From Abyssalbus ytuae (GTDB lineage: Bacteria; Bacteroidota; Bacteroidia; Flavobacteriales; Flavobacteriaceae): a stretch of 64,000 nt of DNA. A program made the position numbers and the translations under genes. A model generated the notes under the pieces. The model was given only the letters and a program-made list of their open reading frames with translations. It was not told the DNA's origin and searched no databases. The stretch covers positions 4,124,171-4,188,170 of the forward strand of contig NZ_CP094358.1 of assembly GCF_022807975.1 (NCBI RefSeq). Direction: 5' to 3'. Numbering within the stretch: position 1 is the first letter of the stretch; every line of letters begins with the position of its first letter. Below, one piece after another: positions 9,753 through 26,855 of this stretch.

Positions 9753-10526
9753 ATGGATATAAAATCGTGTTATATAGGCCCTGAAATTTCACCGGAACAG
9801 TTTATTCCGGAACATTTCTTTTTGTTTTTGGCAAAAGGAATTTTAAATGGTTATGACGGCAGTAAGGATGTTACATTGAGATCGGGCGATTATTGTATAG
9901 TACGTAAAAACTATTTAGCACGATATAACAAACAAACCGAAAACAACGAATTTGAAAAGGTAGTGGTGATTTTTGATGAAATATTTCTAAAACAATTTCA
10001 GGAAAAGTATCAACCAAAAACAGAACGATATAAACCTAAAGAGGCATTTATTCTTTTGGGTAAAAATGAGCATATACCCGCTTTTATCTGCTCATTGATG
10101 CCTTATTATAATGGTATGGGTAAAATTGAAGAAGGAATTCAAGATACCAAGCGAGAAGAACTTTTACTTATATTGTTAGAAATGTATCCGGATTTAACGG
10201 GTATACTTTTTGACTTTGGTAAACCGGAAAAAATAAACCTGGAAGAGTTTATGAACCAAAATTATAAATTTAATGTAGGTATTGAACGTTTTGCATATTT
10301 AACGGGTAGAAGTCTTTCGGCATTTAAAAGAGATTTTAAACAAATATTTAATAATACCCCGAGTCGCTGGTTAATTCACAAAAGGTTACAAGAGGCTCAT
10401 TTTCTTATTGATAAAAAGAAACAAAAACCATCTGAAATTTATGTTGATTTAGGTTTTGAAGATTTGTCTCATTTTTCACATGCTTTTAAAAAACAATTCG
10501 GAATAAGTCCAAAGAGCTTATTATAA
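9753..10526 (+). CDS. AraC-family transcriptional regulator.
   Basis: The C-terminal AraC double-HTH is present (SLSAFKRDFKQIFNNTPSRWLIHKRLQEAHFLI...FEDLSHFSHAFKKQFGISP). Confidence 0.8.
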   Translation: MDIKSCYIGPEISPEQFIPEHFFLFLAKGILNGYDGSKDVTLRSGDYCIVRKNYLARYNKQTENNEFEKVVVIFDEIFLKQFQEKYQPKTERYKPKEAFILLGKNEHIPAFICSLMPYYNGMGKIEEGIQDTKREELLLILLEMYPDLTGILFDFGKPEKINLEEFMNQNYKFNVGIERFAYLTGRSLSAFKRDFKQIFNNTPSRWLIHKRLQEAHFLIDKKKQKPSEIYVDLGFEDLSHFSHAFKKQFGISPKSLL

Positions 10527-10619
10527 TGAGTAGCTAATCTTATTTTTAACTGGCCTAAAAGAATAAGTTATCATAGCTGTTTATTTCACTGAATTCAAAA
10601 GAAATATTATTTCCTATGG

Positions 10620-10870
10620 TTAAAGGAAACTTTTGTGGTTACCCACAAAACGGCAGACACTTTTTTTGCTCCATGCTTTTCTGAGCGAAGGCGGGCTCCT
10701 TCGCTAAAACAGTACTTCCCTTCACCTATTCTGCCTAAAGGGAGGTTATAGAATAGAGGGTAGATGTGTTTATTTGTGTAATCGGTTATTTGTTGATTTT
10801 ACACTTTGTGCTTTTTTAGATTTCTCAGTCGCCTTGCAGGCTCTTGCCAAAATGACTGCATAACACAGGG
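10620..10870. repeat. Diverged solitary copy of the repeat family that forms the 13.1-19.2 kb arrays.
   Basis: It shares gttacccacaaaacggcagacacttttttt...ctattctgcctaaagggaggtt...gtaatcgg.tatttg.tgattt.acactttgtgcttttttagatttctcagtcgcctt with the array modules. Confidence 0.6.
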
Positions 10871-11043
10871 CCTTTTCGAACGTAGTGAGAAATCTCAACT
10901 TAGGCGTAGCCAAATCTTATGAAAGTTACGATTTAAAGCTTTTTCCTTTACTACTGCAACTGTTCTGTTCAAACAGGTATTTTTTTACAAATTAGGAAGA
11001 CTTATATCTTTTTAGCTTTTATATAAAATTATTTATCGTAATA

Positions 11044-11403
11044 TTGCAATTAAGTAAATCAGAATATAAAATGGGATTAGCCAAAACAGAAATATTTACT
11101 GATGAACAGAATCAAATTGCTATTTTTTCCAAGGCTTTTGGGCACCCTGCCCGGGTAGCCATTTTACAACAATTGTTTAAAATGGATTCCTGTTATTGTG
11201 GAGATTTGGTAGAAGATATCGGGTTGGCACAGCCTACCGTGTCACAACATCTTAAGGAACTTAAAAATTTAGGGCTTATTAAAGGAAATGTGGAGGGAAC
11301 CAGTGTTTGCTATTGTATAGATAGGGAAAACTGGTTAAAAATGAAGGAGGTTATGAATCTTTTTTTTGATCAGGATGTACCTGATCATCCCGAATGTTGT
11401 TAA
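11044..11403 (+). CDS. arsR: ArsR/SmtB-family metalloregulator.
   Basis: HTH segment ARVAILQQLFKMDSCYCGDLVEDIGLAQPTVSQHLKELKNLGLI. The start may be at 11071. It begins an ars-like operon. Confidence 0.7.
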   Translation: MQLSKSEYKMGLAKTEIFTDEQNQIAIFSKAFGHPARVAILQQLFKMDSCYCGDLVEDIGLAQPTVSQHLKELKNLGLIKGNVEGTSVCYCIDRENWLKMKEVMNLFFDQDVPDHPECC

Positions 11404-11456
11404 AAAAATTTGAAACCATTAATTGTTTTATTGCGATTAAATAATTTATTGAAATA

Positions 11457-12089
11457 ATGACCCCGGTAACAGACACTATTTTCCCCAAACTTCAGGAACA
11501 TATGGAAAATTTATCCATTAATGATATCCCTGACATCCGTAAAAAAACTCTTCAGCCTTTAATTGATTTTATACAAAACAAACTAAATACGGCGCAAGCT
11601 GTAAATATCAACTTTATTTGTACCCATAATTCACGCAGAAGCCATTTATCACAGGTATGGGCGCAGGCGAGTGCTGTTTATTATGGAATTCCCAATGTGC
11701 ATTGTTACTCCGGTGGTACGGAAGTGACTGCCTTGTTTCCCATGGTGGCCAGGGTTCTGGAATATACCGGGTTTAACATTCAAAAGCTCTCTGATTCCTC
11801 CAATCCGTTGTATGCCATCAAATACAGTCCTAATTTTCATCCTGTTATCGGGTTTTCAAAAAAGTATGATGATGATTTTAATCCGGTATCCGGTTTTGCG
11901 GCTATAATGACCTGTTCCCAGGCGGATGGTGGTTGTCCTTTTATTTCCGGAGCAGAGCAACGTATACCCATCACCTTTGAAGATCCTAAAGTTTTTGATG
12001 GTACACCGGAACAGGAAGCAAAGTATATGGAGCGTAGTAAGCAGATTGCCAGAGAAATGAAATATGTATTTTCAACTATTAAGAAGTAA
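11457..12089 (+). CDS. LMW-PTP-fold protein, a putative arsenate reductase or tyrosine phosphatase-like protein of ars operons.
   Basis: CTHNSRRS P-loop (CX5R). Placed between arsR and the ACR3 permease. Confidence 0.55.
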   Translation: MTPVTDTIFPKLQEHMENLSINDIPDIRKKTLQPLIDFIQNKLNTAQAVNINFICTHNSRRSHLSQVWAQASAVYYGIPNVHCYSGGTEVTALFPMVARVLEYTGFNIQKLSDSSNPLYAIKYSPNFHPVIGFSKKYDDDFNPVSGFAAIMTCSQADGGCPFISGAEQRIPITFEDPKVFDGTPEQEAKYMERSKQIAREMKYVFSTIKK

Positions 12090-12097
12090 GATAAGAA

Positions 12098-13138
12098 ATG
12101 AGTAAAAAGAAATTAAGTTTTTTAGACAGCTATCTCACTCTTTGGATCTTCCTTGCTATGGGGATAGGAGTGGGGGCAGGATATTTTTTCCCTGTTATTG
12201 CAAAGATGATAAATACCATGAGTAGCGGCTCTACCAACATTCCTATTGCTATCGGATTAATTGTAATGATGTACCCTCCTTTGGCCAAGGTAAATTACAG
12301 CTTGCTGCCAAAGGTTTTCCGGAATGTGAAACTGTTATCTGTTTCGCTCATATTGAACTGGATTATCGGCCCGGTATTGATGTTTGTTCTTGCTATTACT
12401 TTTTTAAAAGATTATCCGGAATATATGGCAGGTTTAATATTAATCGGTTTGGCCCGTTGTATTGCCATGGTACTGGTATGGAATGACCTGGCGGAAGGAA
12501 GCAGTGAATATGGTGCGGGACTGGTAGCTTTAAACAGTATATTCCAGGTATTTGTGTATAGTTTTTATGCGTGGATATTTATTACCGTGCTGCCTCCTTA
12601 TTTCGGGTTTGAGGGTGCTATTGTAGATATTTCTATCGGCACTATTGCCGAAAGTGTGATTATTTATTTGGGAATTCCGTTTGTATTGGGTTTTTTAAGC
12701 CGTTTACTTTTGGTAAAATGGAAGGGGGAAGCCTGGTATACTACCAAGTTTATTCCTGCCATATCACCACTTACTTTAATTGCCCTTTTGTTTACCATAG
12801 TGGTGATGTTCTCACTTAAAGGGGAGTTGATTGTGGAAATACCAATGGATGTATTAATCATCGCGATCCCATTACTTATTTATTTTGCCCTGATGTTTTT
12901 TATAGGTTTCTTTTTTAGTAAAGCGGTGGGAGCTGATTATGATAAAAATGCATCGGTTGCTTTTACTGCTGCGGGAAATAATTTTGAACTGGCTATTGCC
13001 GTTGCTATTGCTGTTTTTGGCCTTAATTCGGGTCAGGCCTTTGCCGGTGTTGTTGGTCCGTTGGTAGAAGTTCCTGCGTTGATTTTACTCGTCAGGGTTT
13101 CTTTTTGGTTAAAGAAGAAATATTACAGGCTTGGTTGA
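12098..13138 (+). CDS. arsB: ACR3-family arsenite efflux permease.
   Basis: Ten-TM protein of 346 aa. N-terminus is [13 protein letters not shown]...MMYPPLAKV. Typical length and context for ACR3. Confidence 0.85.
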
Positions 13139-13140
13139 TT

Positions 13141-14310
13141 GGAATTTTTGCGTTTTTTCCAGTGTCTTTTTTTGTTTATTAATAAGGTTCGGGGGAACCA
13201 ACCTGTGTGGATGTGCTATTCTATGATGTTTATTTTGTCTTGATACAAAATGAACCAACCCGCCCGAACGTGCCGTTCGGTACGGGCGGGAAAGGCTAGG
13301 CTGTCGGAAGTGTCTTTAAATTTTTTGTTTGCTTTTTTAGATTTCTCAGTCGCCTTACTGGCTCTTGTCGAAATGACCTCGCAAAAGGGAAGAATAACAA
13401 AACCGGGAGACTGTATAGCTGGAATTTTTGCGTTTTTTCCTGTATCTTTTTTTGTTTATTAATAAGGTTCGGGGGAACCAACCTGTGTGGATGTGCTATT
13501 CTATGATGTTCATTTTGTCTTGATACAAAATGAACCAAAAAATCAAGAACATTTTAAGGAAATTTTTGTGGTTGCCCACAAAACCACAGACACTTTTTTT
13601 CGCTCCATGCTTTATCCTACTTTGCAGGATGCACTTCCGCTCAAAGTGCTGTTATTTCTGGAAAATGTTCGGGGATGCTTCGCATTTTTTGTTGTCGCAA
13701 AACCGGCTTGCAAATTCCGCGTCGCTGTACTCCTGAATCCCGGAGTTTTGCTAAGCCTATTCTGCCTAAAGGGAGGTTTTGTAATAGGGGTGATGTGTTG
13801 AATCGTGTAATCGGGTATTTGCTGATTTGACACTTTGTGCTTTTTTAGATTTCTCAGTCGCCTTACTGGCTCTTGTCGAAATGACCGCGCAAAAGGGAAG
13901 AATACCAAAACCGGGAGACTGTATAGCTGGAATTTTTGCGTTTTTTCCTGTATCTTTTTTTGTTTATTAATAAGGTTCGGGGGAACCAACCTGTGTTGAT
14001 GTGCTATTCTATGATGTTCATTTTGTCTTGATACAAAATGAACCAACCCGCCCGAACGTGCCGTTCGGTACGGGCGGGAAAGGCTAGGCTGTCGGAAGTG
14101 TCTTTAAATTTTTTGTTTGCTTTTTTAGATTTCTCAGTCGCCTTACTGGCTCTTGTCGAAATGACCTCGCAAAAGGGAAGAATAACAAAACCGGGAGACT
14201 GTATAGCTGGAATTTTTGCTATTGCATAACCGGCTTGCAAATTTCGCGTCGCTGTACTCCTGAATCCCGGAGCTTTGCTAAGCCTATTCTGCCTAAAGGG
14301 AGATTTCGCC
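13141..14310. repeat. Tandem repeat array A. It is a mosaic of about 280 bp modules carrying a GC hairpin and a roughly 500 bp module, and begins 3 bp after the arsB stop.
   Basis: The string ggaatttttgcgttttttcc recurs at 13141, 13421 and 13921. The hairpin module cccgcccgaacgtgccgttcggtacgggcggg occurs at 13262 and 14046. Modules are near-identical. Confidence 0.9.
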
Positions 14311-14339
14311 ATATACATAATCAATTTTTTTAGCAAAGG

Positions 14340-14650
14340 GATACTATTCATTCCTTATTTAAAGCTTTTGTTTTGCTATTTTTTTCCGAAAAGGGAGAAA
14401 TGTCGAGGAAGGGAACAGAAAGGGAAGTGGTGAACTATGGTGAACTAAGGTGAACTATATATGAAGTATCTATGGAGTATCTATGAAGTATCTATGGAGT
14501 ATCTATGAAGTATCTATGGAGTATCTATGAAGTATCTATGAAGGAAAGGTGAAGTTGATATGGACTTGTTCTTCATATTTTAAGTATTTCGAAAGAGGAT
14601 ATTACCAGTACTTTTTCCTTTTTTAATACTTTTTTAACAGGAGGAAACTA
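14340..14650. repeat. Segment S, holding microsatellites (GGTGAACTAW x3 and TATGRAGTATC x7.5) and ending in AGGAGG followed by ATG.
   Basis: A perfect 11-bp tandem unit, tatgaagtatc/tatggagtatc, spans 14461-14545. A diverged second copy of the whole segment lies at 19230-19450. Confidence 0.85.
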
Positions 14651-14802
14651 AATGATTAAAAAATGAGGATTTTAGAGGTTTTTTTTACAGGTAAAATACT
14701 ATAAATAAATAGGTTTTATCCTCTTATAAAATAAAGTTTTTTAATTCAATTTTAGAGTCATTAATACTAGTAGTTTCAGGATTATTAATTAAAAAAAACA
14801 TT

Positions 14803-15624
14803 ATGGCAATAGAATTAGAAATTAGAGACGGTTCTCCTCATTGGTATCTAAGTCCAGATATATGGGTTGTGCAAGAACCGGAAGATGTGATGGAAACAGT
14901 GCCCGTTGCTGGCATGCCTTTTTTTGTAAAAGCTAAGGTGAAAAATAATGGAACTAGTACCGCAGTAAACGCAACCGTAAAATTTTATTGGGGTAATCCC
15001 TCTATTGGGGTTAATAGAAATACAGCTAACTTAATTGGTCAATCATTTGTGAGTTTAAATGCAGGAGCCGAAGAAGATGTACTTTGTTTAACACCTTGGA
15101 TTCCCGAATATCTTAACAAAGGTCATGAATGTCTCATAGTTGAAGCATTTCATAGTAGTGACCCCTTAACTGGAACGGTGGATTTTAATGTTCCTACTGA
15201 TAGACATGTGGCTCAAAAGAATCTTTCAGTACTCTTAGTATCAAACTCTATGTTTCATATGAATTTTGAAATGCATAACGGATCGCGGAAAGAGGCAGTG
15301 TTTAATGCTAAAGTTGAACAAGTTAAAATTAATAATCTTCAAAGTCTTGCTCCACATTTGAAAGAAATGTTAGAAGGAAAAAATGAAGGTACATTAAAGA
15401 ATGTTGAATTTACCAATAAGACTTGTATAGAAAGTGAAGAATTAAACAATTATCAAAATGAAAGTGAGAAATTTAGTATTCATGGATACGGGAAAAAGCC
15501 AGTGGCTGTTACGGGAGAGATTGAGGGAGATTATGTTTTTTTAATAATTACTCAATATCAAGATAAGATTGAAACCGGGGGGTTGGGAATAGTAATAATT
15601 AATGACAAAAATTTTAAATTATGA
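14803..15624 (+). CDS. Hypothetical protein, first gene of the repeat-flanked two-gene cassette. There is a possible Ig/CARDB-like beta-sandwich at the N-terminus.
   Basis: Long ORF with no signal peptide. Its stop overlaps the next start (ATGA). The segment FFVKAKVKNNGTSTAVNATVKFYW resembles CARDB-type strands. Confidence 0.5.
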   Translation: MAIELEIRDGSPHWYLSPDIWVVQEPEDVMETVPVAGMPFFVKAKVKNNGTSTAVNATVKFYWGNPSIGVNRNTANLIGQSFVSLNAGAEEDVLCLTPWIPEYLNKGHECLIVEAFHSSDPLTGTVDFNVPTDRHVAQKNLSVLLVSNSMFHMNFEMHNGSRKEAVFNAKVEQVKINNLQSLAPHLKEMLEGKNEGTLKNVEFTNKTCIESEELNNYQNESEKFSIHGYGKKPVAVTGEIEGDYVFLIITQYQDKIETGGLGIVIINDKNFKL

Positions 15625-17150
15625 TACCTATTGAAATAAACAACAGACCGTTTGCTTCCGATTTAATTACAGGACTTATGATGCCTGATGGAATTTTTGA
15701 GATAAGTTTAGGTAAAATGAGGTTAAATGCCCATTTTACCAATTCAGGTGCAAGTATTTTAAATACTTTAAATATATATGTAGAAAGTGCTTCTCATCCT
15801 GGAATTGTTTTTACTCCTGTAACTCACTTTATAACCTCTTTGGGAGTAGGGGCCTCTATTTTACAAAGTTGGGAAGTAGATATTTCAACCGCACCTTCAG
15901 GTACACATTATGTAAGTTTTATTGTTGAAAACCCTGAGGGAAGACAAAGAATTATAAAAAAGATTTTTGTAACAAAAATTAGCTTTAATTCGGCAAATCA
16001 TACTTTTCTTGCTGAAACGCCAGAAGGTAAAATTGCGGTGAGATATAGAGAAATTACAGAAGTAAATAAAAATAAATGTTGTAAAAAGGAAAGAATAAAG
16101 GATAATGATGATTTAACTTATACAAATTTTTTTGAAAATCTTAGTTATACTTTTTCACTTGGCAATAAAAAAGTGGAGTTATGTCCTATTTTTTTCTTAC
16201 CCTTAGATTTAGAAACAGGCTGGGTCCCTAATCCACCATACGAAGGCCAATATAGTGATTTACCCTTTAATGACCCCTGGTGGAAAGTGGTTATTGCCAT
16301 TATAGCTTTTTTATTGCTAGTTGCGGCAGCAATTGTTGAAGCTACTTCAGGTTCAGGATCTATTACGGCAACCGCCGGGTGTACTTCTACACCATCCGGA
16401 GTTTGTGGTTCGGGAAGTGGAAGTAGCCCAATAGCTGCGGCTCTTGTTGCTGGAGCTGCTGTTGTTGCTGGAATTGCAGTATATAGTGATAAAAGAGACC
16501 TGCATAGAATTGGACAAGATAAAACAATGCCCGATAAAGGTGAATTTACGATTAGGGAAAATATGTCATCCAAAATAAAATATATAGATAATATTGAATT
16601 TGGTAAACCTTTCACAGTTAGGGTTGACTGGAAATATGAACGTGTAACAAGAGATATTAATGGTATTGAAAAGTCATACTTTCATTCTGAAGTTACCCAA
16701 AATCAAAATGTTCATTTATTATCTAAATATGTTATTGATGCTCCTGATATTGTAAGGACATACAAGAAAGAGTCTTTTACTGTAAAAGCTTCTTTCTATG
16801 ATGAAAAGAATGAACTTTATTATGGTAAACAGCTATTTGTTAAATGCTTTTTGGTACATGCTGAAAGTGAGAAAACCATAGATTTTGTTTTGCAGGATAA
16901 TGGTAAAAATTCAGATAAAATAAAAAATGATGGAACTTATACCGGGAGTTACTTTTTTAAAAAAAATGAGGGGGGTAGATGGAAAATTTATGTTGTTGCC
17001 CAAGATGTGAATAACGCCGATGAAAATATGACACCTGAAGAGGCGGCTCAAATCATTGGTGGAATTGTTCTTACTAATCAATTATCCATTAGTTTTTCGG
17101 GAGGATCTTGTCCTCTGGTTCCAGATGGAGATGTTGAAGTTATAGTGTAA
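15621..17150 (+). CDS. Hypothetical single-pass membrane protein with a Gly/Ser/Ala-rich low-complexity linker, second gene of the cassette.
   Basis: TM helix WWKVVIAIIAFLLLVAAAIV is followed by GSGSITATAGCTSTPSGVCGSGSGSSPIAAALVAGAAVVAGIAV. Translationally coupled to the upstream gene. Confidence 0.5.
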   Translation: MIPIEINNRPFASDLITGLMMPDGIFEISLGKMRLNAHFTNSGASILNTLNIYVESASHPGIVFTPVTHFITSLGVGASILQSWEVDISTAPSGTHYVSFIVENPEGRQRIIKKIFVTKISFNSANHTFLAETPEGKIAVRYREITEVNKNKCCKKERIKDNDDLTYTNFFENLSYTFSLGNKKVELCPIFFLPLDLETGWVPNPPYEGQYSDLPFNDPWWKVVIAIIAFLLLVAAAIVEATSGSGSITATAGCTSTPSGVCGSGSGSSPIAAALVAGAAVVAGIAVYSDKRDLHRIGQDKTMPDKGEFTIRENMSSKIKYIDNIEFGKPFTVRVDWKYERVTRDINGIEKSYFHSEVTQNQNVHLLSKYVIDAPDIVRTYKKESFTVKASFYDEKNELYYGKQLFVKCFLVHAESEKTIDFVLQDNGKNSDKIKNDGTYTGSYFFKKNEGGRWKIYVVAQDVNNADENMTPEEAAQIIGGIVLTNQLSISFSGGSCPLVPDGDVEVIV

Positions 17151-17204
17151 ATAGATTCTTTCATAATATTTGGGTTGTTGTAATAATTGGCATTAAAAAG
17201 GGAG

Positions 17205-19230
17205 GAATTTTGGCTATTGCATAACCGGCTTGCAAATTTCGCGTCGCTGTACTCCTGAATCCCGGAGCTTTGCTAAGCTTATTCTATCTAAAGGGAGGTT
17301 TTGTAATAGGGGTGAATGTGTTGAATCGTGTAATCGGGTATTTGTTGATTTGACACTTTGTGCTTTTTTAGATTTCTCAGTCGCCTTACAGGCTCTTGTC
17401 GAAATGACCGCGCAAAAGGGAAGAATAACAAAACCGGGAGATTGTATAGCTGGAATTTTTGCTATTGCAAAATTAGTTTGCAAATTCCGCGTCGCTGTAC
17501 TCCTGAATCCCGGAGCTTTGCTAAGCTTATTCTATCTAAAGGGAGGTTTTGTAATAGGGTTGATGTGTTGAATCGTGTAATCGGGTATTTGCTGATTTGA
17601 CACTTTGTGCTTTTTTAGATTTCTCAGTCGCCTTACAGGCTCTTGTCGAAATGACCGCGCAAAAGGGAAGAATAACAAAACCGGGAGATTGTATAGCTGG
17701 AATTTTTGCTATTGCATAACCGGCTTGCAAATTTCGCGTCGCTGTACTCCTGAATCCCGGAGTTTTGCTAAGCCTATTCTGCCTAAAGGGAGGTTTTGTA
17801 ATAGGGGTGGATGTGTTGAATCGTGTAATCGGGTATTTGCTGATTTGACACTTTGTGTTTTTTTAGATTTCTCAGTCGCCTTACAGGCTCTTGTCGAAAT
17901 GACCGCGCAAAAGGGAAGAATAACAAAACCGGGAGATTGTATAGCTGGAATTTTTGCTATTGCAAAATTAGTTTGCAAATTCCGCGTCGCTGTACTCCTG
18001 AATCCCGGAGTTTTGCTAAGCCTATTCTGCCTAAAGGGAGGCTTTGTAATAGGGGTGAATGGGTTGAATCGTGTAATCGGGTATTTGTTGATTTAACACT
18101 TTGTGGTTTTTTAGATTTCTCAGTCGCCTTACTGGCTCTTGTCGAAATGACCGCACAAAAGGGAAGAATAACAAAACCGGGAGACTGTATAGCTGGAATT
18201 TTTGCGTTTTTTCCAGTGTCTTTTTTTGTTTATTAATAAGGTTCGGGGGAACCAACCTGTGTGGATGTGCTATTCTATGATGTTCATTTTGTCTTGATAC
18301 AAAATGAACCAAAAAATCAAGAACATTTTAAGGAAATTTTTGTGGTTGCCCACAAAACCACAGACACTTTTTTTCGCTCCATGCTTTATCCTACTTTGCA
18401 GGATGCACTTCCGCTCAAAGTGCTGTTATTTCTGGAAAATGTTCGGGGATGCTTCGCATTTTTTGTTGTCGCAAAACCGGCTTGCAAATTTCGCGTCGCT
18501 GTACTTCTGAATCCCGGAGCTTTGCCAAGCCTATTCTGCCTAAAGGGAGGTTTTGTAATAGGGGTGAATGGGTTGAATCGTGTAATCGGGTATTTGCTGA
18601 TTTGACACTTTGTGCTTTTTTAGATTTCTCAGTCGCCTTACAGGCTCTTGTCGAAATGACCGCGCAAAAGGGAAGAATAACAAAACCGGGAGATTGTATA
18701 GCTGGAATTTTTGCGTTTTTTCCTGTATCTTTTTTTGTTTATTAATAAGGTTCGGGGGAACCAACCTGTGTGGATGTGCTATTCTATGATGTTCATTTTG
18801 TCTTGATACAAAATGAACCAAAAAATCAAGAACATTTTAAGGAAATTTTTGTGGTTGCCCACAAAACCACAGACACTTTTTTTCGCTCCATGCTTTATCC
18901 TACTTTGCAGGATGCACTTCCGCTCAAAGTGCTGTTATTTCTGGAAAATGTTCGGGGATGCTTCGCATTTTTTGTTGTCGCAAAACCGGCTTGCAAATTC
19001 CGCGTCGCTGTACTCCTGAATCCCGGAGTTTTGCTAAGCCTATTCTGCCTAAAGGGAGGTTTTGTAATAGGGTTGATGTGTTGAATCGTGTAATCGGGTA
19101 TTTGTTGATTTAACACTTTGTGCTTTTTTAGATTTCTCAGTCGCCTTACAGGCTCTTGTCGAAATGACCGCGCAAAAGGGAAGAATAACAAAACCGGGAG
19201 ATTGTATAGCTGGAATTTTGGCTATTTTTT
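17205..19230. repeat. Tandem repeat array B, made of four modules of about 247 bp followed by two modules of about 510 bp.
   Basis: gctattgca recurs at 17211, 17458, 17704 and 17952 (period 246-248 bp). ggaatttttgcg-initiated long modules start at 18197 and 18707. This is the same family as array A. Confidence 0.9.
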
Positions 19231-19450
19231 TCCGAAAAGGGAGAAATATCTGGAAGGGAACAGAAAGGGAAATGGTGAACTATGGTGAACTATGGTGAAC
19301 TAAGGTGAACTATATATGAAGTATCTATGAAGTATCTATGAAGGAAAGGTGAAGTTGATATGGACTTGATCTTCATATTTTAAGTATTTCGAAAGAGGAT
19401 ATTACCAGTACTTTTTCCTCTTTTAATATTTTTTTAACAGGAGGAAACTA
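19230..19450. repeat. Segment S', a second copy of segment S with fewer microsatellite units.
   Basis: tttttttccgaaaagggagaaat...ggtgaactatggtgaactatggtgaactaaggtgaactatatatgaagtatctatgaagtatctatgaaggaaaggtgaagttgatatggactt...aacaggaggaaacta. Confidence 0.85.
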
Positions 19451-20006
19451 CATAATGGCAAGGGGTTTGTATGTGAGTAATTAGTTACACAGAAGTTTTC
19501 TTTTCCCAAAAACCCTTTTTAAGCAAAGTCGATAGATTCTTTGGCCAAAGTGTTATCGCAATTTTATTATTGTTAAACCAGCGGAACGTGTCTGCTGCAG
19601 CAGGCACCTTTTAAGCTTATCAATGGACCGTTGGTTTTATCTCGCCCAAAAGTTAAAAACTATCCCGGGAAACCGGGCTCTATTAAACTCCGTCCGAAAC
19701 TGTCACAGCAGCTTCGGGGGTTGGCTAAAAAGTGATTTTATTATTGTTTTAAGCACTTGTCTGCCTGCAGGGCAGCCGGCACTTCAATTTAAAATATTGT
19801 TTTTGAATGTGTTTTAGCGGTGCTTAACGTGACAAAATGGTAACGTATCTTCTTTTTAGCCAGCCTGGGGCGGATATCCTGATGCAAGGCATGAGGGGAA
19901 TCCGAAAAATGAGATAATTGTTTAACCGGTACCGGTGATTACGACCGGTACAGTCCGTTCCCGTTTCTGACATTTGAGAGCGGGCGGATAAAAAACTATT
20001 TACATT

Positions 20007-20807
20007 ATGGGACTTCAAAAGGGTTTTATTAAGTTAAAAGGTTCGTTGGGAGGACTTACCTTTTATGAAAAAAACGGAGAGAATATTGTGAGAACTACCG
20101 GCGGGATAGATAAAGAAAGGATTGCCAAGGATCCGTCTTTTAAGCGTACCCGTGAAAACATGGCTGAATTTGGCGGTGCTGCCAAAACCGGAAAAGCCCT
20201 GAGGATGGGATTTGCGAACATCATTAAAACCATGGCCGACAACAGGATTGTGGGCAGACTCACCGGAATAATGAAAAAGGTGAATACTCATGGTACAGGA
20301 TTAAGAGGACAACGTTCTTTTGAAATATTGAAAAATGCGAATATTATCCAGGGGTTTGAGTTTAATAAAACGTTTCCGCTGGGGGCTATTTTTTATGCTC
20401 CGACACAGGCACCGACCCTGGATGCCAACCGTAGTATTGTTACGTGGGTAGTACCGGATTTTGACACTGACAGTTTTATTACTGTTCCTGAAGGGGCCAC
20501 TCATTTTAAGCTGGTGTTAGCCACCACAGTATTGAGTGATTATACTTACGAGGTTTCGAGCAAGAGTTTTGTGCCGGTAAACCCGGCTGAAAACCAAAGG
20601 AACGGGGTTGCCTTTAGTGATGCTATTGCCATAGGCGGTATGGCAGGAAGTGATATTACGCTTACTGTTGATTTAGGTTTTGACTCTGCTTTACCGGCTA
20701 CGGCAGGGGTTATTAGTGCAACGGGTATAATTTTTTACCAGGAGATTAATTCTCAATTGTATGAATTGGCGGGTTCTAATGCTATGCGTATTGAAGCGAT
20801 AGAATAG
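20007..20807 (+). CDS. Hypothetical protein.
   Basis: 266-aa ORF with GC content above its neighbours. It is preceded by a structured GC-rich leader and followed by a terminator. Confidence 0.5.
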   Translation: MGLQKGFIKLKGSLGGLTFYEKNGENIVRTTGGIDKERIAKDPSFKRTRENMAEFGGAAKTGKALRMGFANIIKTMADNRIVGRLTGIMKKVNTHGTGLRGQRSFEILKNANIIQGFEFNKTFPLGAIFYAPTQAPTLDANRSIVTWVVPDFDTDSFITVPEGATHFKLVLATTVLSDYTYEVSSKSFVPVNPAENQRNGVAFSDAIAIGGMAGSDITLTVDLGFDSALPATAGVISATGIIFYQEINSQLYELAGSNAMRIEAIE

Positions 20808-20962: not shown

Positions 20963-21175
20963 TTAGGAATCCTTTTTAGTAGGTACCAATAATTCCCGGA
21001 TATCAACATCCAGTATTTTAGCAATGCGTTTAAGGTCTTTTAAATGCGGTTGGGATTTATTATTGCATATAGCAGTGACGGTATTAGGATTTTTACCCAA
21101 TTGAGCAGCCAGTTCTTTTTGGCTAATTCCTTTAATAACCAAAACTTCTTTTATTCTATTTATTCTTTCTTCCAT
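20963..21175 (-). CDS. XRE/Cro-CI family HTH regulator.
   Basis: 70-aa protein, ELAAQLGKNPNTVTAICNNKSQPHLKDLKRIAKIL. It is a close paralog of 42686-42892. Confidence 0.8.
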   Translation of the reverse strand: MEERINRIKEVLVIKGISQKELAAQLGKNPNTVTAICNNKSQPHLKDLKRIAKILDVDIRELLVPTKKDS

Positions 21176-21371
21176 ACACTACAAAAGTAGCTAAAACAGG
21201 GGTTTTATAAAATTTCATAAGTTCTAAAATATACGCATAACCAATATAAACATATGTTTAATTTGTATTTTTATTTGAATAACCTATGAAAATATTTTAT
21301 CAACTCATAGGTTATACTTATATTTGTGTGTGCTAAATCAATAAAAACATCAATAAAACCTATTATTTAAT

Positions 21372-21671
21372 ATGAAAAAAGAAGATTTAATTGTCAGTTT
21401 AATACAATGTAATATGCAGCACTGTCAACTGGTGTTAAATCTCGAAAATATAGGATTGGAAGACAGAGTAGGGGTGTTTGACATAAACTTGATGGAAATT
21501 GTAGCATGGCTTATGTGTGCTAAAAAAACAGAAATTGATGATGAGTGGATGGAAACCTATTTAAACTTTATGAATGAAGCTGCAAACTATAAAGTTACAA
21601 GAAACGGAACTTCTTTAAAATCATTGGCAGAAAAGTGTTATGAGGAATTAAAAGAAGTTTTACCAACATAA
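21372..21671 (+). CDS. Hypothetical protein.
   Basis: 99-aa ORF in AT-rich DNA with no recognisable motif. Confidence 0.35.
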   Translation: MKKEDLIVSLIQCNMQHCQLVLNLENIGLEDRVGVFDINLMEIVAWLMCAKKTEIDDEWMETYLNFMNEAANYKVTRNGTSLKSLAEKCYEELKEVLPT

Positions 21672-22284
21672 TAAATAAAATTCAATTCAATTACTGTTTG
21701 TAAATGTTAGAGTTTAATAATTTAGGTTGGCTATACACCAATTTGCTATGATGTTATTTGAATGATAATATTTATCATTATATTACTTTGCTTGGGTAAA
21801 AGTGAGAGTTACATTTGCTGATTTACTTTAAAAAGTTTTCTTCTGCAAAGCTACTTTTACAAAGTTTAATGGAACAATCCTTACACGAAACGACGGTAGG
21901 AGAGTAGTGTAATGCGTGTGGTATGGGAATATGTTACAAAATTAGATGCTTTTTGCTTCAGTGTAAGGCTCCCTAAAAACCGAACTGTTTAAAAATAGAA
22001 AATAGTTTTAGACTTAACCCAACTTCTTCATATAAGATTTTTCCTTATTTATAACAAAAGTTGCGTTTATGCACCCAATTTTGGGTGAGTAAACACAATT
22101 AATAAAGTTTATATATATTTAGCGGTCAGCAGATAAATCCACTATTCTGAACAAAACAGATAACGCTAAAATCCGAATATGCGTATTCGTCAATTGTCAT
22201 ATTTGCCAATTATAATTCTTTTCTTTATATTTGCACCATAACTTTAAAAGTGGCGACAACACTATAAATGCGGTACAAAATGTT

Positions 22285-22794
22285 ATGAATAAAGAACATA
22301 AAAAAAAATTCGCGAGTGAAAAAGAATTTTTAGCATTTGAATTTAAGTCAAAAGCAAGAATTATTGATGACAAAATGGTCGAGGTCATTGCGCCAGATGG
22401 AGAAGTTTTTTCAGTATTGGCTCCGATTGGGATTTACACCAATGAAGAAACTCGTCATTATCAACTACACGTAATAGAATATGTTTTTGACAAAAATTTC
22501 TCCGATGACAAGGAATTAATGACCCACAATATTTGGAAAGATTTATTTCTAAATCGCGTGTCATTTATGGGTATGAGTCCCGGAGACAAACAAGGAGAAA
22601 GAACTCGAATCGGAAAAAAAATTCGCCAAATTCGGGAAGAAAAGGGAATTGAAGGAAAAGACTTAGCAAGGTTAACAAATATAGACGCTGCAAATCTCAG
22701 TAGAATTGAACGAGGTAAATATTCCGTTGGACTTGATATTCTTTCAAAGCTAGCATCTGCCTTAGGATACCATATTGACATTGTACCAAATTAA
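22285..22794 (+). CDS. Protein with an N-terminal domain of unknown function and a C-terminal XRE-type HTH.
   Basis: C-terminus reads IRQIREEKGIEGKDLARLTNIDAANLSRIERGKYSVGLDILSKLASALGY. The ORF-track start lacks an ATG and overlaps a TATATTTG -7 promoter motif at about 22225, so the start is taken at M19 (22285). Confidence 0.55.
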   Translation: MNKEHKKKFASEKEFLAFEFKSKARIIDDKMVEVIAPDGEVFSVLAPIGIYTNEETRHYQLHVIEYVFDKNFSDDKELMTHNIWKDLFLNRVSFMGMSPGDKQGERTRIGKKIRQIREEKGIEGKDLARLTNIDAANLSRIERGKYSVGLDILSKLASALGYHIDIVPN

Positions 22795-22805
22795 ATGTAA
22801 TCAAT

Positions 22806-23804
22806 ATGGAAAATTTACTTGAAAATTATAATGGCATTCAAGAATGCTATTATAAAAACGAGCATTATTCTGTTCGAGATAATGGCGCTGTACTTCGGCA
22901 TACTCCTTATAATAATCGGACCAGACCAACAGATAACAAATGGACCTTTGGAAAATTAAACAACAGAACGGGTTATTTGGAAATCGCTTCTGTTCGTATT
23001 CACAGGATAGTTGCGACTGCCTTTCACGGAGAACCGCCAACAAAAGAACACGTTGTTGATCACATAGACACAAACAAACAAAATAATCGACCATACAATC
23101 TACGTTGGGTAACAAGATTAGAAAACATTTTACTTAACCCAATCACAGTGAAGCGAATTGAAATAGCTTGTGGATGTAGTGTTGAGGAATTTCTAACTGA
23201 CCCTTCAAAATTTCGTAATAAGTTTCAAGAACCAAACTATGAGTGGATGTGTGCAGTAAACATTCAAGAAGCACAAGCAAGTAAAGAAAGGTTATTGGCT
23301 TGGGCAAAAAGTGAAAAGCCATTACAAGGAGGTTCTTTAGGCGAATGGATTTATAATCGAAATATGTCAAATCAATTTACTGACTATATTGAAGAGAAAT
23401 TAGAGTTTATAAATTCTCTAACTCCAAATGCTGTTCAAAAAGCCAGAAATTGGAAAACACCAAGTGAATTTCCTTGTTGTCCTCAGGAAAATACTCATAA
23501 TCCAATGGCTGACTATATTGCAAACCTAAATATGGGGAATGTATTTTCTCGAAACCAATATACAAGTTCGATTATTGAATGTTTTGCAATTTCCAAAGAC
23601 GAAAACACATTGTGGATTATGTGCAAAAGTGGCGACGAAAACCCAATAAAACCTTATTCTTTGGCAGAGATAACCTATCAAAACGATGTTTTCGTTCATA
23701 ATAGTCTTGGAACTTTTTTCGAAAAAGGTGGAGCAGAAAAACAATTTACTCTTACACAAGGACTTGAATGGACAGGAGGTGAAACCATTGATGATTATTG
23801 TTGA
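22806..23804 (+). CDS. HNH endonuclease (HNH_3-type), a homing- or defense-associated nuclease.
   Basis: Motif EHVVDHIDTNKQNNRPYNLRWVTRLEN. Confidence 0.7.
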   Translation: MENLLENYNGIQECYYKNEHYSVRDNGAVLRHTPYNNRTRPTDNKWTFGKLNNRTGYLEIASVRIHRIVATAFHGEPPTKEHVVDHIDTNKQNNRPYNLRWVTRLENILLNPITVKRIEIACGCSVEEFLTDPSKFRNKFQEPNYEWMCAVNIQEAQASKERLLAWAKSEKPLQGGSLGEWIYNRNMSNQFTDYIEEKLEFINSLTPNAVQKARNWKTPSEFPCCPQENTHNPMADYIANLNMGNVFSRNQYTSSIIECFAISKDENTLWIMCKSGDENPIKPYSLAEITYQNDVFVHNSLGTFFEKGGAEKQFTLTQGLEWTGGETIDDYC

Positions 23805-23939
23805 AAATAAAAATTAAATATTAACAAAATGCCGAACCGCTAACACTGGCTCATGAGTAATTGCTGCTAATGGTTAAGCTTAAGATGTTTTCTTTCAAAT
23901 CTCTCACAGTTTCTATCTTTATTTCCTTAAATAGCGGTG

Positions 23940-24415
23940 GGGCGCGGCACTTTTACATAGCGACAAATTATGGAACAAATGAACTGAGAATTCCATATTG
24001 TTGACGATATAAAACACTGCGTGTTGTTATATCTACAATTATATCAAATACGCGGTATTCGCCGTTTTACTAAAAAACATTATTTTTGAATGATAATGTT
24101 CTGCGTTATGTAACTTGAGCTTTGGTAAAAGCAGGACAGAGCGTTAAGAAAAGGTCTGGTAGACCTTTTTAGCGAATGAGCCAGATGGCACTTAAACAAA
24201 CTACAGTTTCTTTAAAAAAATTTTGCTCCAAAAGTTTCTTCTACAATGTTAATGAAATCAAAAATAAGCCGAAGGCAAATATTTTTGATTCATGAACACC
24301 TCTAAAACAATATATATTTTGTGAATAAACACTTTTTATGCGACGAGTTTACACTGAGCAAAGTCGAAGTGTAGGAGGGAAGTGTAATGGGTGGGGAATG
24401 GGATTATTCCCCTTT
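23940..24415. repeat. Composite intergenic repeat (families R2 + R1), the longest copy.
   Basis: The part shared with 49220-49445 and 54945-55215 is ttgacgatataaaacactgcgtgttgttatatctacaattatatcaaatacgcggtattcgccgttttactaaaaaacattatttttgaatgataat. The R1 part, gacgagtttacactgagcaaagtcgaagtgtaggagggaagtgtaatgggtgggg, is shared with 21845, 38160, 49395 and 50310. Confidence 0.8.
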
Positions 24416-24491
24416 ATGTTGTTGAAAACATAGAATAACTTTCACAAATAAGATTCTTTTCTTTTGTTAAATTGCAATAAATATTAACAAT

Positions 24492-26855
24492 ATGCAGACA
24501 GGTTTTTTTGCTTACGGCTCACAAATTCCTTCAAGTGGTGAGTGTATAGAAGAAGCGATCAAAATTATTAATAATGATGATAACGATGTGAAAATTGAAT
24601 CTTGGAGAAATTTGAAAGTATCTGGGTCATTAATAATTTCTAATATATTAGCTTCAATAAATAAATCTGATTTCTTCTGTGCAGATCTGACAGGGCTTAA
24701 TGATAATGTCTTATTTGAAATAGGATATGCTTTAGCAAAAGGTAAACCTCTTTATTTAATTAATGATACTACACAAGAAGAATCTTCAAGGAGATTTAGA
24801 GAATTAGGTCTTTTGTCTACTGTTGGATATTACCCATACACTAACACACAAAATATTGTTGATGGTTTTTATAGAATGACACCTTATGATCCAGTTGATA
24901 AATATTGGGAGGAACTGACTAAAACTTTACCAAATGATATAGAAAGGAAGGCTCTTTTAGTTTTAAATAGTCAGGTAGAAACAAATTATAATCTTGAAAT
25001 AATTAATCAAGTAGAATTTTTTAATCTACCAAATATTGTAGATGATGCTAGTGAAAGTATAGTTCAACCTATTAGTTGGTATATTGAGCAATTATATTCT
25101 GTACCAGCTGTTTTAGTACAATTCTCTTCACAGGCTAGATCAGGGTATGAAATTCATAACTCTAAATGTGCTCTTGTATCTGGAATTGCATTGGGTCTAG
25201 GATTAAAGCTTCAAATGATTGCTGAAAAACCTTATGGAGTGCCAATGGATTATAAGGAACTCCTTAAAAAATTTAGTAATAGAAAAGAGTGTGCTTTAAT
25301 AGTAACAAATTACTTAGGTGAATTAAGAGATGAAATAGCCTCTTTACTTATAGATAGTGATAAAAAAACAATTGAGAGGAGAACTAGAAGCGAACTCCAA
25401 AATGTCAATTTTGGTGAGGCGATTGCTGAGCACGAAAGTAATAATCTTTATGAATATTATGTGGATACATATCACACTCAACAACTAATTAAAAATGAAT
25501 ATAATATCGTAATTGGAAGAAAAGGTTCAGGGAAAACAGCAACGCTTTATTATTTAAAAGAAGACTTAGCCAGAGATGTAAGGAATAATGTGATACTAAT
25601 AAAGCCAATAAATTTTGAGGTTGATGGATTAATTTTACTTATGGAGGAATCTAATAGTGAATTTGAAAAAGGTTTTTTAATAGAAACAATTTGGAAGTTT
25701 CTGATATATACAGAAATTGCTAAATATTTATATTCAAAAACAAAAGATAAACCTCTCTATGCATTGACTGATGTTGAAACAAAATTTATAGACTTCATCG
25801 AAAAAAATAAGGCTATATATCTTACTGATTTCTCAACGAGGTTAGAAGAACAAATAAAAATTCTAAAGGAAAATAATATAAAAGATATTGGTGCAGGAAA
25901 TAATAAAGAATTTAGGTTAAAAGTTTCAGAGTTGCTTCATCAAAGTTCTATTTATGAAATGAAAAAGTATTTTGGTGATTTAATCCCTAAGAAACATAGG
26001 CTGATAGTACTTATTGATAACTTAGATAAGTCCTGGCGCAAAGATTCCAAAATTAATATTCTTAGCAAATATATACTTGGATTATTAGGGGTTTCAGGTC
26101 GGATTTTTCAAGAGTTATCTTATATAAAATCAACGAATAAAAATATTGCATTTCATCTTACTATATTTCTTAGAAGTGATATTTTCAAGCGTGTAATTTC
26201 TTTTGCGAGGGAGCCTGATAAAATTGAAGTTTCTAGATTAAAATGGGATGATCCAGAGATTTTGTTTAGAATTGTAGAAGATCGTTTTACTCAACTAAGT
26301 AAAGGGAAATATACTGGAGATGATCTTTGGGAAAAGTTTTTCGTGAAAAAGGTAAAATCTATGGATACTAAAGAATATATAACTAATAGTATTTTTCCAA
26401 GACCTAGAGATATAATTTATTTTTTCAAAACCTGTAAGGATATTGCTATTTCTAGGGGGCATAATATTATAGAAGAGAATGATGTTATTTCTGCTCATAC
26501 AGATTATTCAAGTTGGGTTTTCAAGTCAGTTTTAGTAGAAAATGGAATTACTTATAAACAGATGGAAGATTTTATGTATGAATTGATGACTAGTAATGAA
26601 ATCATAAGCATAGAACAAATAAATGAAAAGATGACTAATGCTAAAATACTTAATCATGACTCGGATGATCTAGATAGGTTTATTGATCATTTGGTAAATT
26701 TAACAATTATTGGAAGAGAAACAGAGAAAGGCAAATTCAGTTTTGAGTATGATGTAGATAATGCAAAAAAAATCAAAATATTGTCTAAAAAATTAGATTC
26801 CAATAGATTTAAAATTCATCCGGCGCTAGTACCATATTTAGAATGTAAAACCTAA
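24492..26855 (+). CDS. Candidate anti-phage defense protein. It fuses an N-terminal nucleoside 2-deoxyribosyltransferase-like or TIR-like domain to a central P-loop NTPase, with a C-terminal helical region.
   Basis: The N-terminal segment FFAYGS...FFCADLTGLNDNVLFEIGYALAKGKPLYLI matches the deoxyribosyltransferase/TIR-like signature. Walker A is IGRKGSGKTA, at about residue 345. Walker B-like is LIVLIDNLDKSW. It is flanked by an HNH nuclease and by repeats. Confidence 0.55.
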   Translation: MQTGFFAYGSQIPSSGECIEEAIKIINNDDNDVKIESWRNLKVSGSLIISNILASINKSDFFCADLTGLNDNVLFEIGYALAKGKPLYLINDTTQEESSRRFRELGLLSTVGYYPYTNTQNIVDGFYRMTPYDPVDKYWEELTKTLPNDIERKALLVLNSQVETNYNLEIINQVEFFNLPNIVDDASESIVQPISWYIEQLYSVPAVLVQFSSQARSGYEIHNSKCALVSGIALGLGLKLQMIAEKPYGVPMDYKELLKKFSNRKECALIVTNYLGELRDEIASLLIDSDKKTIERRTRSELQNVNFGEAIAEHESNNLYEYYVDTYHTQQLIKNEYNIVIGRKGSGKTATLYYLKEDLARDVRNNVILIKPINFEVDGLILLMEESNSEFEKGFLIETIWKFLIYTEIAKYLYSKTKDKPLYALTDVETKFIDFIEKNKAIYLTDFSTRLEEQIKILKENNIKDIGAGNNKEFRLKVSELLHQSSIYEMKKYFGDLIPKKHRLIVLIDNLDKSWRKDSKINILSKYILGLLGVSGRIFQELSYIKSTNKNIAFHLTIFLRSDIFKRVISFAREPDKIEVSRLKWDDPEILFRIVEDRFTQLSKGKYTGDDLWEKFFVKKVKSMDTKEYITNSIFPRPRDIIYFFKTCKDIAISRGHNIIEENDVISAHTDYSSWVFKSVLVENGITYKQMEDFMYELMTSNEIISIEQINEKMTNAKILNHDSDDLDRFIDHLVNLTIIGRETEKGKFSFEYDVDNAKKIKILSKKLDSNRFKIHPALVPYLECKT

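Follow-up and report, generated by a model that had tools for sequence, protein, structure and literature searches.

A two-protein module of an unnamed family, with a predicted membrane hairpin, scattered over Bacteria and Archaea and fused in a fungus

Introduction

RexA/RexB and Kiwa KwaA/KwaB, considered here as an analogy, each combine a soluble partner with a small membrane effector. The mercury transporters MerT and MerF offer a second analogy, in which a relay of Cys pairs runs across a small helical membrane protein. Here we analysed two adjacent genes of Abyssalbus ytuae, P1 and P2, which encode a soluble protein and a membrane protein and lie 1.66 kb downstream of arsR/arsC/ACR3 on the same strand. 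The window is a stretch of 64,000 nucleotides (nt) of contig NZ_CP094358.1 (positions 4,124,171 to 4,188,170, forward strand), and all coordinates below refer to it. The analysis shows that the pair is an autonomous, obligate two-protein module of an unnamed family, that this module is horizontally scattered over Bacteria and Archaea, and that it occurs as a single fused open reading frame (ORF) in a fungus. In our assessment the module lies outside every known kind of system, in the sense that it is unassigned to any family and not that it is mechanistically understood. No existing database names it, and a literature search found no paper that links CARDB with choice-of-anchor domains, describes the P1/P2 family or treats this A. 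ytuae locus.

Results

P1 and P2 are real, translationally coupled genes

The two genes and the sequence in front of them are as follows.

14803-15624, + strand: P1, 273 amino acids (aa), soluble, without a signal peptide, two beta-sandwich domains.
15621-17150, + strand: P2, 509 aa, a membrane protein with 152 homolog clusters; AlphaFold2 model with a predicted local distance difference test score (pLDDT) of 82 and a predicted template modelling score (pTM) of 0.82.
14653-14802, + strand: AT-rich leader (GC 0.19) from the end of segment S, described below, to the P1 start, without counterpart in relatives; it presumably holds the promoter of the pair.

A first-pass annotation, made from the letters alone, had proposed two ORFs at these positions coupled by an ATGA. 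This was confirmed, as positions 15621-15624 read ATGA and the P2 start overlaps the P1 stop. Its description of both products as uncharacterised also held, since sequence and profile searches with both proteins against Pfam, NCBIfam, PADLOC, PHROGs and PDB returned nothing significant. Both are 100% matches to NCBI hypothetical proteins of A. ytuae. For each protein, the searches returned more than 140 clusters of homologs at 33-79% identity, and a Pfam domain was present in none of these. Comparison with Aquimarina and with a metagenomic relative gave a ratio of nonsynonymous to synonymous substitution rates (dN/dS) of 0.11-0.14, and comparison of two Aquimarina species with each other gave 0.06-0.14. 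Since each protein has this many homolog clusters and the dN/dS values are this low, P1 and P2 are real genes, and the pair is under purifying selection. The suggestion that the pair is AT-rich relative to the ars genes is correct numerically, but the GC contents of P1 and P2 (0.343 and 0.339) equal the window mean (0.339), and it is the ars genes (0.358-0.401) and the repeat arrays (0.41) that are GC-rich outliers.

The pair is conserved as a unit in distant hosts

The annotation had also proposed to look for conservation of homologous pairs, and these were found across the related loci. In tblastn searches, a P1 homolog lay immediately 5' of the P2 homolog in every locus that had a full-length P2 match and upstream DNA. 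The two were separated by 3-90 nt in nearly all loci and by 237 nt in one; two larger apparent gaps reflected partial alignments. The locus tags of P1 and P2 homologs are likewise adjacent in NCBI records. When all ORFs within 10 kb on either side of the pair were clustered, the only recurring families were P1 and P2 themselves (40 and 35 loci). The next-largest cluster comprised 4 loci and reflected synteny of close relatives, and no conserved third gene emerged. A Pfam search of the 141 nearest and 135 next-nearest neighbours gave 130 and 157 different families, with top counts of 4-5 and no recurring theme.

The host range was determined by a pattern-based scan of one genome per species over 185,579 species, in which the 41 loci found are a lower bound. 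Related loci occur in at least 12 bacterial phyla and in Halosimplex archaea. The census hosts include Bacteroidota (Aquimarina, Ulvibacterium, Dyadobacter, Pontibacter, Chitinophagaceae), Chloroflexota, Bacillota (Paenibacillus, Marininema), Nitrospirales, Alpha- and Gammaproteobacteria (Shewanella, Pistricoccus, Aquirickettsiella, Henriciella), Cyanobacteria, Actinomycetota, Myxococcota, Planctomycetes and two species of the haloarchaeon Halosimplex. Across these hosts P2 identity was mostly 40-50%. An Acidobacteriota locus and Bacillus aquiflavi were found outside the census.

Metagenome-assembled genomes (MAGs) of Saccharibacteria, members of the candidate phyla radiation (CPR) with very small genomes, contributed 6 of the 41 species-genome loci (L017, L019, L023, L024, L039, L041) and look over-represented. 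At one of these loci (L023, also extracted as L077), the pair adjoins two cupredoxins, two Big_7/fn3 proteins and a P-type ATPase.

An exhaustive search with a profile built from the P1 alignment revealed single-ORF fusions of P1 and P2, namely P0335 (786 aa), P0323 (803 aa), P0326 (837 aa) and the partial P0366. In the three complete fusions, P1 occupies approximately aa 1-216 and P2 approximately aa 294-836. The P2 linker region (aa 146-193) corresponds to a Cys cluster in the fused homologs, and distant fusions keep or expand both Cys clusters, for example as CKCCCACQC and HCCDK. P0326 is KAJ6100378.1 of the fungus Penicillium canescens, encoded on JAQJZW010000008.1 (L079, 10001-12514) by an uninterrupted 2514-nt ORF without introns. 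The surrounding region is poor in genes and lies 27-49 kb from the end of a chromosome-scale contig of 3.67 Mb. The fused gene adjoins a Tc-toxin-like gene (Neuraminidase + TcA_TcB_BD), which suggests a transfer from bacteria to the fungus. Because of the fusions, P1 and P2 are expected to act together in one compartment, by the Rosetta-stone argument.

Both proteins are built from beta-sandwiches

To describe the domains we used AlphaFold2 models made with family alignments, together with conservation across the homologs. The two proteins divide as follows, all on the + strand.

14803-15240, + strand: P1 N-terminal divergent CARDB-like domain (aa 1-146), very highly conserved.
15241-15621, + strand: P1 C-terminal beta-sandwich domain (aa 147-273), variable in sequence.
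15621-16055, + strand: P2 N-terminal beta-sandwich domain (aa 1-145).
16056-16199, + strand: P2 low-confidence linker (aa 146-193); vicinal Cys153-Cys154 conserved, Cys188 invariant.
16200-16286, + strand: P2 conserved juxtamembrane segment (aa 194-222), motif GQYxDLPFxDPWWK.
16287-16346, + strand: P2 predicted first transmembrane helix (TM1; aa 223-242), family mean Kyte-Doolittle 2.8.
16347-16427, + strand: P2 predicted extracytoplasmic loop (aa 243-269), two Cys.
16428-16484, + strand: P2 predicted second transmembrane helix (TM2; aa 270-288), Ala/Gly-zipper-like, mean Kyte-Doolittle 1.9.
16485-17147, + strand: P2 post-membrane motif SDxRDxxRxGQD, then the C-terminal beta-sandwich domain(s) (aa 289-509).

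The P1 and P2 models were confident and all-beta. In P2, a beta-sandwich (1-145) is followed by a low-confidence linker (~149-189), a helix (220-243), a low-confidence loop (~243-268), a second helix (270-288) and the C-terminal beta-sandwich(es) (309-508). The structural search of the models that the annotation had recommended returned Ig-like/CARDB beta-sandwiches only, for both proteins, and the best matches were CARDB and generic immunoglobulin (Ig)-like domains. This agrees with the earlier description of P1 as a cytoplasmic-looking protein with an Ig/CARDB-like N-terminus, in that P1 has no signal peptide and adopts the CARDB-type beta-sandwich fold. At the sequence level, aa 18-93 of P1 scored 18.7 bits (E 0.002) against CARDB PF07705 and did not reach the gathering threshold of 22.7 bits. 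Likewise, aa 424-444 of P2 scored 20.2 bits against choice-of-anchor X (NF041940), below the cut-off of 25 bits; this sub-threshold, CLCA-like motif reads DxGxxxDxxxNDGxYTG (aa 426-442), and some P2 homologs are named 'choice-of-anchor X domain-containing protein' by NCBI. P2 lacks both a signal peptide and a C-terminal sorting motif, and it ends in ...DGDVEVIV directly after a beta-strand.

Other family assignments were considered. The pair has neither the three-domain exported ectodomain with fusion loops of class II fusogens (HAP2/GCS1, archaeal Fsx1) nor the macroglobulin (MG) chain with a thioester (CGEQ) domain of alpha-2-macroglobulin/complement MG-domain proteins. P1 and the P2 N-domain were rejected as paralogs (hhalign probability 2.9%). 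Nucleoside triphosphatase (NTPase), nuclease or other sensor/effector domains were found in neither P1 nor P2. The sole family-level statement that survived the tests is that the P1 N-domain belongs, as a divergent member, to the CARDB fold, staying sub-threshold in Pfam and having an atypical location that is probably the cytoplasm.

Conservation is concentrated in a few places. In the P1 N-domain, 62 of 146 positions are conserved at 90% or more, and the invariant or near-invariant polar residues are E6, D9, S17, D19, N48, R72 and C95 in its first half and H108, E109, C110, E114, H117, D120, D133, R134, H135, Q138 and N140 in its second. P2 conservation peaks at GQYxDLPFxDPWWK, at SDxRDxxRxGQD, in TM2 and in the last 40 residues. 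The conserved P2 cysteines are C153/C154 (86-95%), C188 (100%), the CC of the loop (approximately 84-91%), and C409 and C497 in the C-terminal part, both of which are invariant.

P2 is predicted to form a membrane hairpin

Hydropathy, loop composition and charge were measured over 101 P2 homologs. By mean Kyte-Doolittle value (2.8 for TM1), the Ala/Gly-rich second helix, at 1.9, was taken as TM-like. The loop between the helices is 25-40 aa long, consists to 67% of Gly/Ser/Thr/Ala, has a net charge of about -2.5 with approximately 0.2 Lys/Arg, and carries two Cys, which are usually adjacent (CC). The segment C-terminal of TM2 has approximately 3 Lys/Arg. P2 therefore most likely has two membrane helices rather than one, as predicted from these profiles and the model. 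The annotation had rightly noticed a Gly/Ser/Ala-rich stretch with two Cys in P2, but the single TM helix that it described is better read as a two-helix hairpin.

No signal peptide was found in P1, P2 or the fusions. The N-terminus of P1 (MAIELEIRDG; MAxELEIRDG in the family) is polar, is near-invariant across 94 homologs and is not a signal peptide. The pTM of 0.82 implies a confident relative placement of, and contact between, the N- and C-domains of P2, which would accordingly lie on the same side of the membrane. The absence of signal peptides, the charges of the loop and its flanks and the high pTM together point to a topology with the N-terminus in, the loop out and the C-terminus in. 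On this prediction, the globular parts of both P1 and P2 are most likely cytoplasmic.

A predicted complex at the inner membrane face

In the model that we favour, P1 would be a cytoplasmic protein of two beta-sandwiches, and the cluster of invariant His, Cys, Asp and Glu residues in its N-domain would form a ligand or metal site or a docking interface. P2 would sit in the cytoplasmic membrane as a helical hairpin of TM1 and the Ala/Gly-zipper TM2, so that its exposure to the outside would be limited to a short acidic Gly/Ser loop with the vicinal Cys pair. The N- and C-terminal beta-sandwiches of P2 would pack on the cytoplasmic face beside a flexible, Cys-rich arm, and P1 would dock onto this platform. 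The output could run through the hairpin, by oligomerisation or a change in permeability, or through a Cys relay.

We give this explanation, taken as a whole, a probability of roughly 0.45. It blends two parts. The architecture and the autonomy of the module are probable, and the reading of the pair as a non-enzymatic binding/sensing complex at the inner membrane face, a sensor-effector, is tentative. It is similarly doubtful, if possible, that the pair represents an unrecognised membrane system of Bacteria, Archaea and Fungi, in which a cytoplasm-facing complex made solely of Ig-like/CARDB domains, held by a Gly/Ala-zipper hairpin and with Cys relays at the two membrane faces, serves as a cell-autonomous conflict/cell-death module or as a thiol-based trans-membrane sensing/transfer device. 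With low confidence, we regard the pair as an accessory module of the stress/conflict type rather than a housekeeping one.

Several points weigh against the favoured model. CARDB and 'choice-of-anchor X'-like domains are normally extracellular, so that a cytoplasmic location is atypical for them, and the location rests on prediction. Conserved Cys pairs often mark disulfides. The docking of P1 and the spatial clustering of its invariant residues are predicted, and the ligand and the output are postulated. Sequence conservation this strong is unusual in a conflict system. The neighbours of the pair at approximately 38 loci showed no enrichment of defence genes or mobile elements, and no relative was found in 72,556 plasmids and 50,697 phages by tblastn or in a scan of IMG/VR.

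A possible role in defence and the gene neighbourhood

The pair could instead be an anti-phage or abortive-infection system resembling RexAB or Kiwa, in which P1 senses infection and the P2 hairpin oligomerises and depolarises the membrane. A rare, patchy, cross-domain distribution with clear horizontal transfer, the autonomy of the two genes and the Ala/Gly-zipper-like character of TM2 would all fit such a role, as would the place of the fungal fusion beside a Tc-toxin-like gene in a gene-poor region at a contig end. So would the variable region around the A. ytuae pair, with its XRE regulators, HNH_3 endonuclease, deoxyribosyltransferase-like 787-aa protein and RtcB-PrfH genes. These downstream features are as follows.

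20007-20807: 266-aa ORF, without a match in Pfam, PADLOC or PHROGs.
20963-21175, - strand: XRE-type helix-turn-helix (HTH) gene, assigned by eye only.
22231-22794: XRE-type HTH gene.
22806-23804: HNH_3 endonuclease-domain protein.
24492-26855: 787-aa protein whose N-terminus is weakly nucleoside 2-deoxyribosyltransferase-like.
27996-29387: RtcB ligase.
29390-30082: RF-1-domain protein, probably PrfH-like.

Against a role in defence, PADLOC-DB 2.0 gave no match to either protein at E values up to 1, and PHROGs gave none. No defence theme appeared in the 130 Pfam families of the 141 nearest neighbours or in the second shell, and PADLOC found few generic matches (ABC-type ATPases and one SNF2 helicase) among those nearest neighbours. 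The proteins themselves lack NTPase, nuclease and other sensor/effector domains, and for a gene in an arms race an identity of 40-50% across domains of life is high. The synteny of the pair with a LytTR two-component system in Aquimarina, Ulvibacterium and a Chitinophagaceae MAG argues for stable residence. We therefore consider a role in phage defence unlikely.

Three observations concern the neighbourhood itself. Positions 20963-26855, downstream of the pair, look like a variable or conflict island. Two tRNA-like Rfam matches follow the RtcB and RF-1 genes, at 30912-30997 (35.8 bits) and 31014-31086 (32.4 bits); they were not called by ARAGORN and are possibly tRNA mimics (Y-RNA-like) that belong to an RNA-repair operon. 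At four Bacteroidota loci (L006-L009; two from Aquimarina, one from a Chitinophagaceae MAG and one from Ulvibacterium), a LytTR response regulator lies within a few kb of the pair, accompanied at three of the four by a histidine kinase. The genes that neighbour the pair in other Bacteroidota, including the LytTR system, have no homolog in the 64-kb window.

A possible role in metal or redox handling

Alternatively, the pair could handle or sense thiophilic metal(loid)s or redox state through a Cys relay like that of MerT/MerF, linked in A. ytuae to the ars operon. The CC of the outer loop would capture the ligand and pass it to the cytoplasmic arm with C153/C154 and C188, and from there to the His/Cys cluster of P1. 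Conserved vicinal Cys pairs at the predicted outer and inner sides of the membrane, together with the invariant C188, and the retention or expansion of the Cys clusters in distant fusions are consistent with this route. The same is true of the invariant P1 cluster (H108/C110/H117/H135/D120/D133) and of 3idu, the structure that matched best, in which a CARDB domain was crystallised with a di-metal site. The context adds arsR/arsC/ACR3 upstream on the same strand, and cupredoxin genes near the pair in one Saccharibacteria locus. Nevertheless, the association with metal genes is not conserved, and neither Pfam nor NCBIfam returned a match to MerT/MerF/MerC or to HMA domains. The TM helices offer no polar or Cys residues to line a path, and approximately 700 conserved beta-sandwich residues would be left unexplained. 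A metal theme among three neighbouring P-type ATPases was also considered and rejected, since all three lack the CPC motif and two are clearly not heavy-metal pumps; the two larger ones, without CPC/CxxC, look like P2-type ATPase pumps. Collectively, these points make a dedicated metal or redox function quite improbable.

A possible extracytoplasmic location

A further alternative is that P1 and P2 are extracytoplasmic surface or adhesion proteins that leave the cell by non-classical export, with P2 anchored by one TM helix and its C-domain outside. This reading can draw on the CARDB-like fold, on structural neighbours that are mostly extracellular Ig-like domains, on the choice-of-anchor X/CLCA-like motif in the P2 C-domain with the matching NCBI name of some homologs, and on C409 and C497, which could form a disulfide. 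It conflicts with the lack of signal peptides in P1, P2 and the fusions, with the near-invariant polar N-terminus of P1 and with the fusions, in which P1 and the P2 N-domain both precede the first TM helix and so share a compartment. The TM-like hydropathy of TM2 in the family and the domain contact implied by the pTM of P2 also speak against it. An identity of 40-50% between bacteria and archaea is rare for adhesins, and the envelopes of the hosts (Gram-positive, Gram-negative, CPR, haloarchaea and fungus) are entirely different. A surface role is accordingly very unlikely.

The pair is independent of the flanking repeat arrays

The pair lies, as the annotation had pointed out, between two repeat arrays (A and B) and two similar segments (S and S'), and the coordinates confirm this.

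13140-14313: array A, units of 280 + 508 + 280 nt and a partial unit.
14371-14652: segment S.
17204-19216: array B, four 248-nt and two 509-nt units.
19217-19452: segment S'.
10620-10856: degenerate array-unit pieces, between an AraC-like gene and arsR.

Five modules (X, Y1, Y2, Z and T), all in a single orientation, make up the mosaic of the arrays. The units measure 248 nt (Z+T), 280 nt (X+Y1+T) and 509 nt (X+Y2+Z+T), and their copies are 97-99% identical. Across 13100-20100, 23 terminator-like hairpins were counted against 6.6 expected, and Rfam searches at gathering and permissive settings over 10400-20100 gave no match to the arrays. S and S' are approximately 93-96% identical; S lies upstream of the pair and S' upstream of the 266-aa ORF at 20007-20807. 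Both contain tandem repeats in helical phase, 10-mers TGGTGAACTA (3-4 copies) and 11-mers TGAAGTATCTA, the latter in 8.5 copies in S versus 3.5 in S'. Their homology stops at an AGGAGG-like motif, after which different mini-ORFs follow, and S/S' look like a slippage-prone or iteron-like tract.

The annotation had concluded from this position that the pair is the likely cargo of a repeat-defined locus, and the comparison with relatives does not support this. Tandem Repeats Finder (TRF) detected no long-period repeats at L001-L007, and TRF with self-BLAST on 46 related loci found no arrays of the 248/509-nt kind at the pair, so that the homologous pairs do not also sit beside repeat arrays. When window positions 13000-20100 were compared by BLASTN with the closest relatives (Aquimarina and a metagenome contig, approximately 78% nucleotide identity), only 14791/14800-17140 aligned. 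This is the two ORFs, with similarity ending within approximately 12 nt of the start and stop codons, and the arrays, S and the AT-rich leader had no counterpart. The pair thus occurs in approximately 40 other genomes among unrelated neighbours and without arrays, and its evolution has been independent of the A. ytuae arrays on either side. That homologs lie in unrelated and unrepeated contexts is one of two findings that the annotation had named as telling against its proposal; the other, that the proteins are ordinary housekeeping or surface proteins, was not borne out.

The array sequence was also sought elsewhere. The GTDB species genomes, a collection that apparently does not hold the A. 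ytuae genome, did not contain a 33-mer taken from the array unit, and a 19-mer was absent from the viral contigs of IMG/VR. The 19-mer was present in 25 Joint Genome Institute (JGI) metagenome contigs, where nearly all matches were 20-23 nt long and one was 29 nt at 93%. The matching stretch of 20-23 nt belongs to the T module (18640-18662 and equivalents, around GGCTCTTGTCGAAATGACC) and recurs exactly or nearly so in these 25 unrelated contigs (L047-L071) with no similarity beyond it, which may be coincidence, given the very large size of the collection, or may mark a short conserved coding motif.

That the pair is cargo of a repeat-delimited cassette or of a mobile or recombination unit, with repeats functionally tied to the genes, would agree with the regular layout (array A, S, pair, array B, S', 266-aa ORF), with an S-type segment 5' of each gene or gene pair and with near-identical array copies that imply recent recombination, but it is highly improbable given approximately 40 related loci, the 78%-identity relatives included, without such arrays or long tandem repeats beside the pair, the sharp end of DNA similarity at the coding boundaries, a repeat unit found neither in GTDB species genomes nor in viral contigs and only as short metagenome matches, and the lack of an integrase or transposase among the ten neighbouring ORFs scanned against Pfam. 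The degenerate unit pieces at 10620-10856 mean that the ars operon is bracketed by repeats as well. As a general property of the family, the cargo reading is largely refuted. In the simplest reading, the arrays are a lineage-specific intergenic repeat family that expanded in a variable region, and the pair is a separately acquired unit that came by chance to lie between two of the expansions.

Discussion

If the favoured model is true, CARDB and choice-of-anchor domains, which are viewed as adhesion modules outside the cell, have a conserved role inside it, close to the membrane. An identity of 40-50% from flavobacteria to haloarchaea and Saccharibacteria, together with the Penicillium fusion, implies a function that is self-sufficient and independent of envelope type. 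The module is small and autonomous and occurs in cultivable hosts (Aquimarina, Dyadobacter frigoris, Bacillus aquiflavi, Paenibacillus montanisoli and Pistricoccus), which makes it an easy experimental target. As the arrays are unrelated to the pair, the locus poses two separate puzzles, of which the arrays are the lineage-specific one.

The P1 domain extends beyond the pair. A P1 profile search returned 2,077 representative clusters at E values up to 1e-3 and 198 at E values up to 1e-30. Relatives of atypical length had no Pfam domain other than CARDB/Ig-like ones and are hypothetical in their source records. Among the clusters detected by the profile is a sister family of approximately 420 aa, with a charged N-terminal extension, a P1-type CARDB-like N-domain and an unrelated C-terminal half. 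In all three contexts inspected, it was encoded in a conserved six-gene operon (L072, 3969-10827; L073, 4052-10804; L074, 3975-10834) with the order membrane protein of approximately 650 aa, P1-like protein, protein of approximately 150 aa, Hint/intein-like protein of approximately 255 aa, protein of approximately 370 aa and flavoprotein of the geranylgeranyl-reductase family. Four of the six proteins are without a family assignment, and in L074 the last two genes seem to be split into several shorter ORFs. Like P1, the sister protein carries all the signature motifs in its N-domain, is predicted to be cytoplasmic and has a membrane protein encoded next to it, here immediately upstream. It differs in that this membrane partner is unrelated to P2 (hhalign probability 0.2%) and in the four further conserved genes of its operon. 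If the cytoplasmic reading holds, the pair and the sister family would reveal a large superfamily of cytoplasmic CARDB-like proteins (approximately 2,000 representative clusters) with no studied member.

How, then, does the pair compare with the systems described so far? Like RexA/RexB and Kiwa, it is a self-contained, horizontally mobile operon of a soluble and a membrane protein, for which an output at the level of the membrane, without an enzymatic domain, may be proposed. It differs from both in having no PADLOC match, no defence-island context and far higher conservation, and in P2 being large, with approximately 400 residues of beta-sandwich and only a two-helix hairpin. With MerT/MerF it shares vicinal Cys pairs at both faces of a minimal hairpin, the sidedness being predicted for P2. 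Unlike these transporters, however, it shows no Pfam or NCBIfam homology to them, most of its loci are without mer or other metal operons, the P2 cysteines lie in loops and not within the TM helices, and large Ig-like domains are present. CARDB proteins (PF07705; 3idu, PF1109 of Pyrococcus) are related to P1 by fold. Compared with them, P1 stays below the family threshold and, lacking a signal peptide, is predicted to be cytoplasmic; it carries the family-specific invariant motifs W.SPDIW, GHEC and DRHxAQ+N, and it always comes with a dedicated membrane partner.

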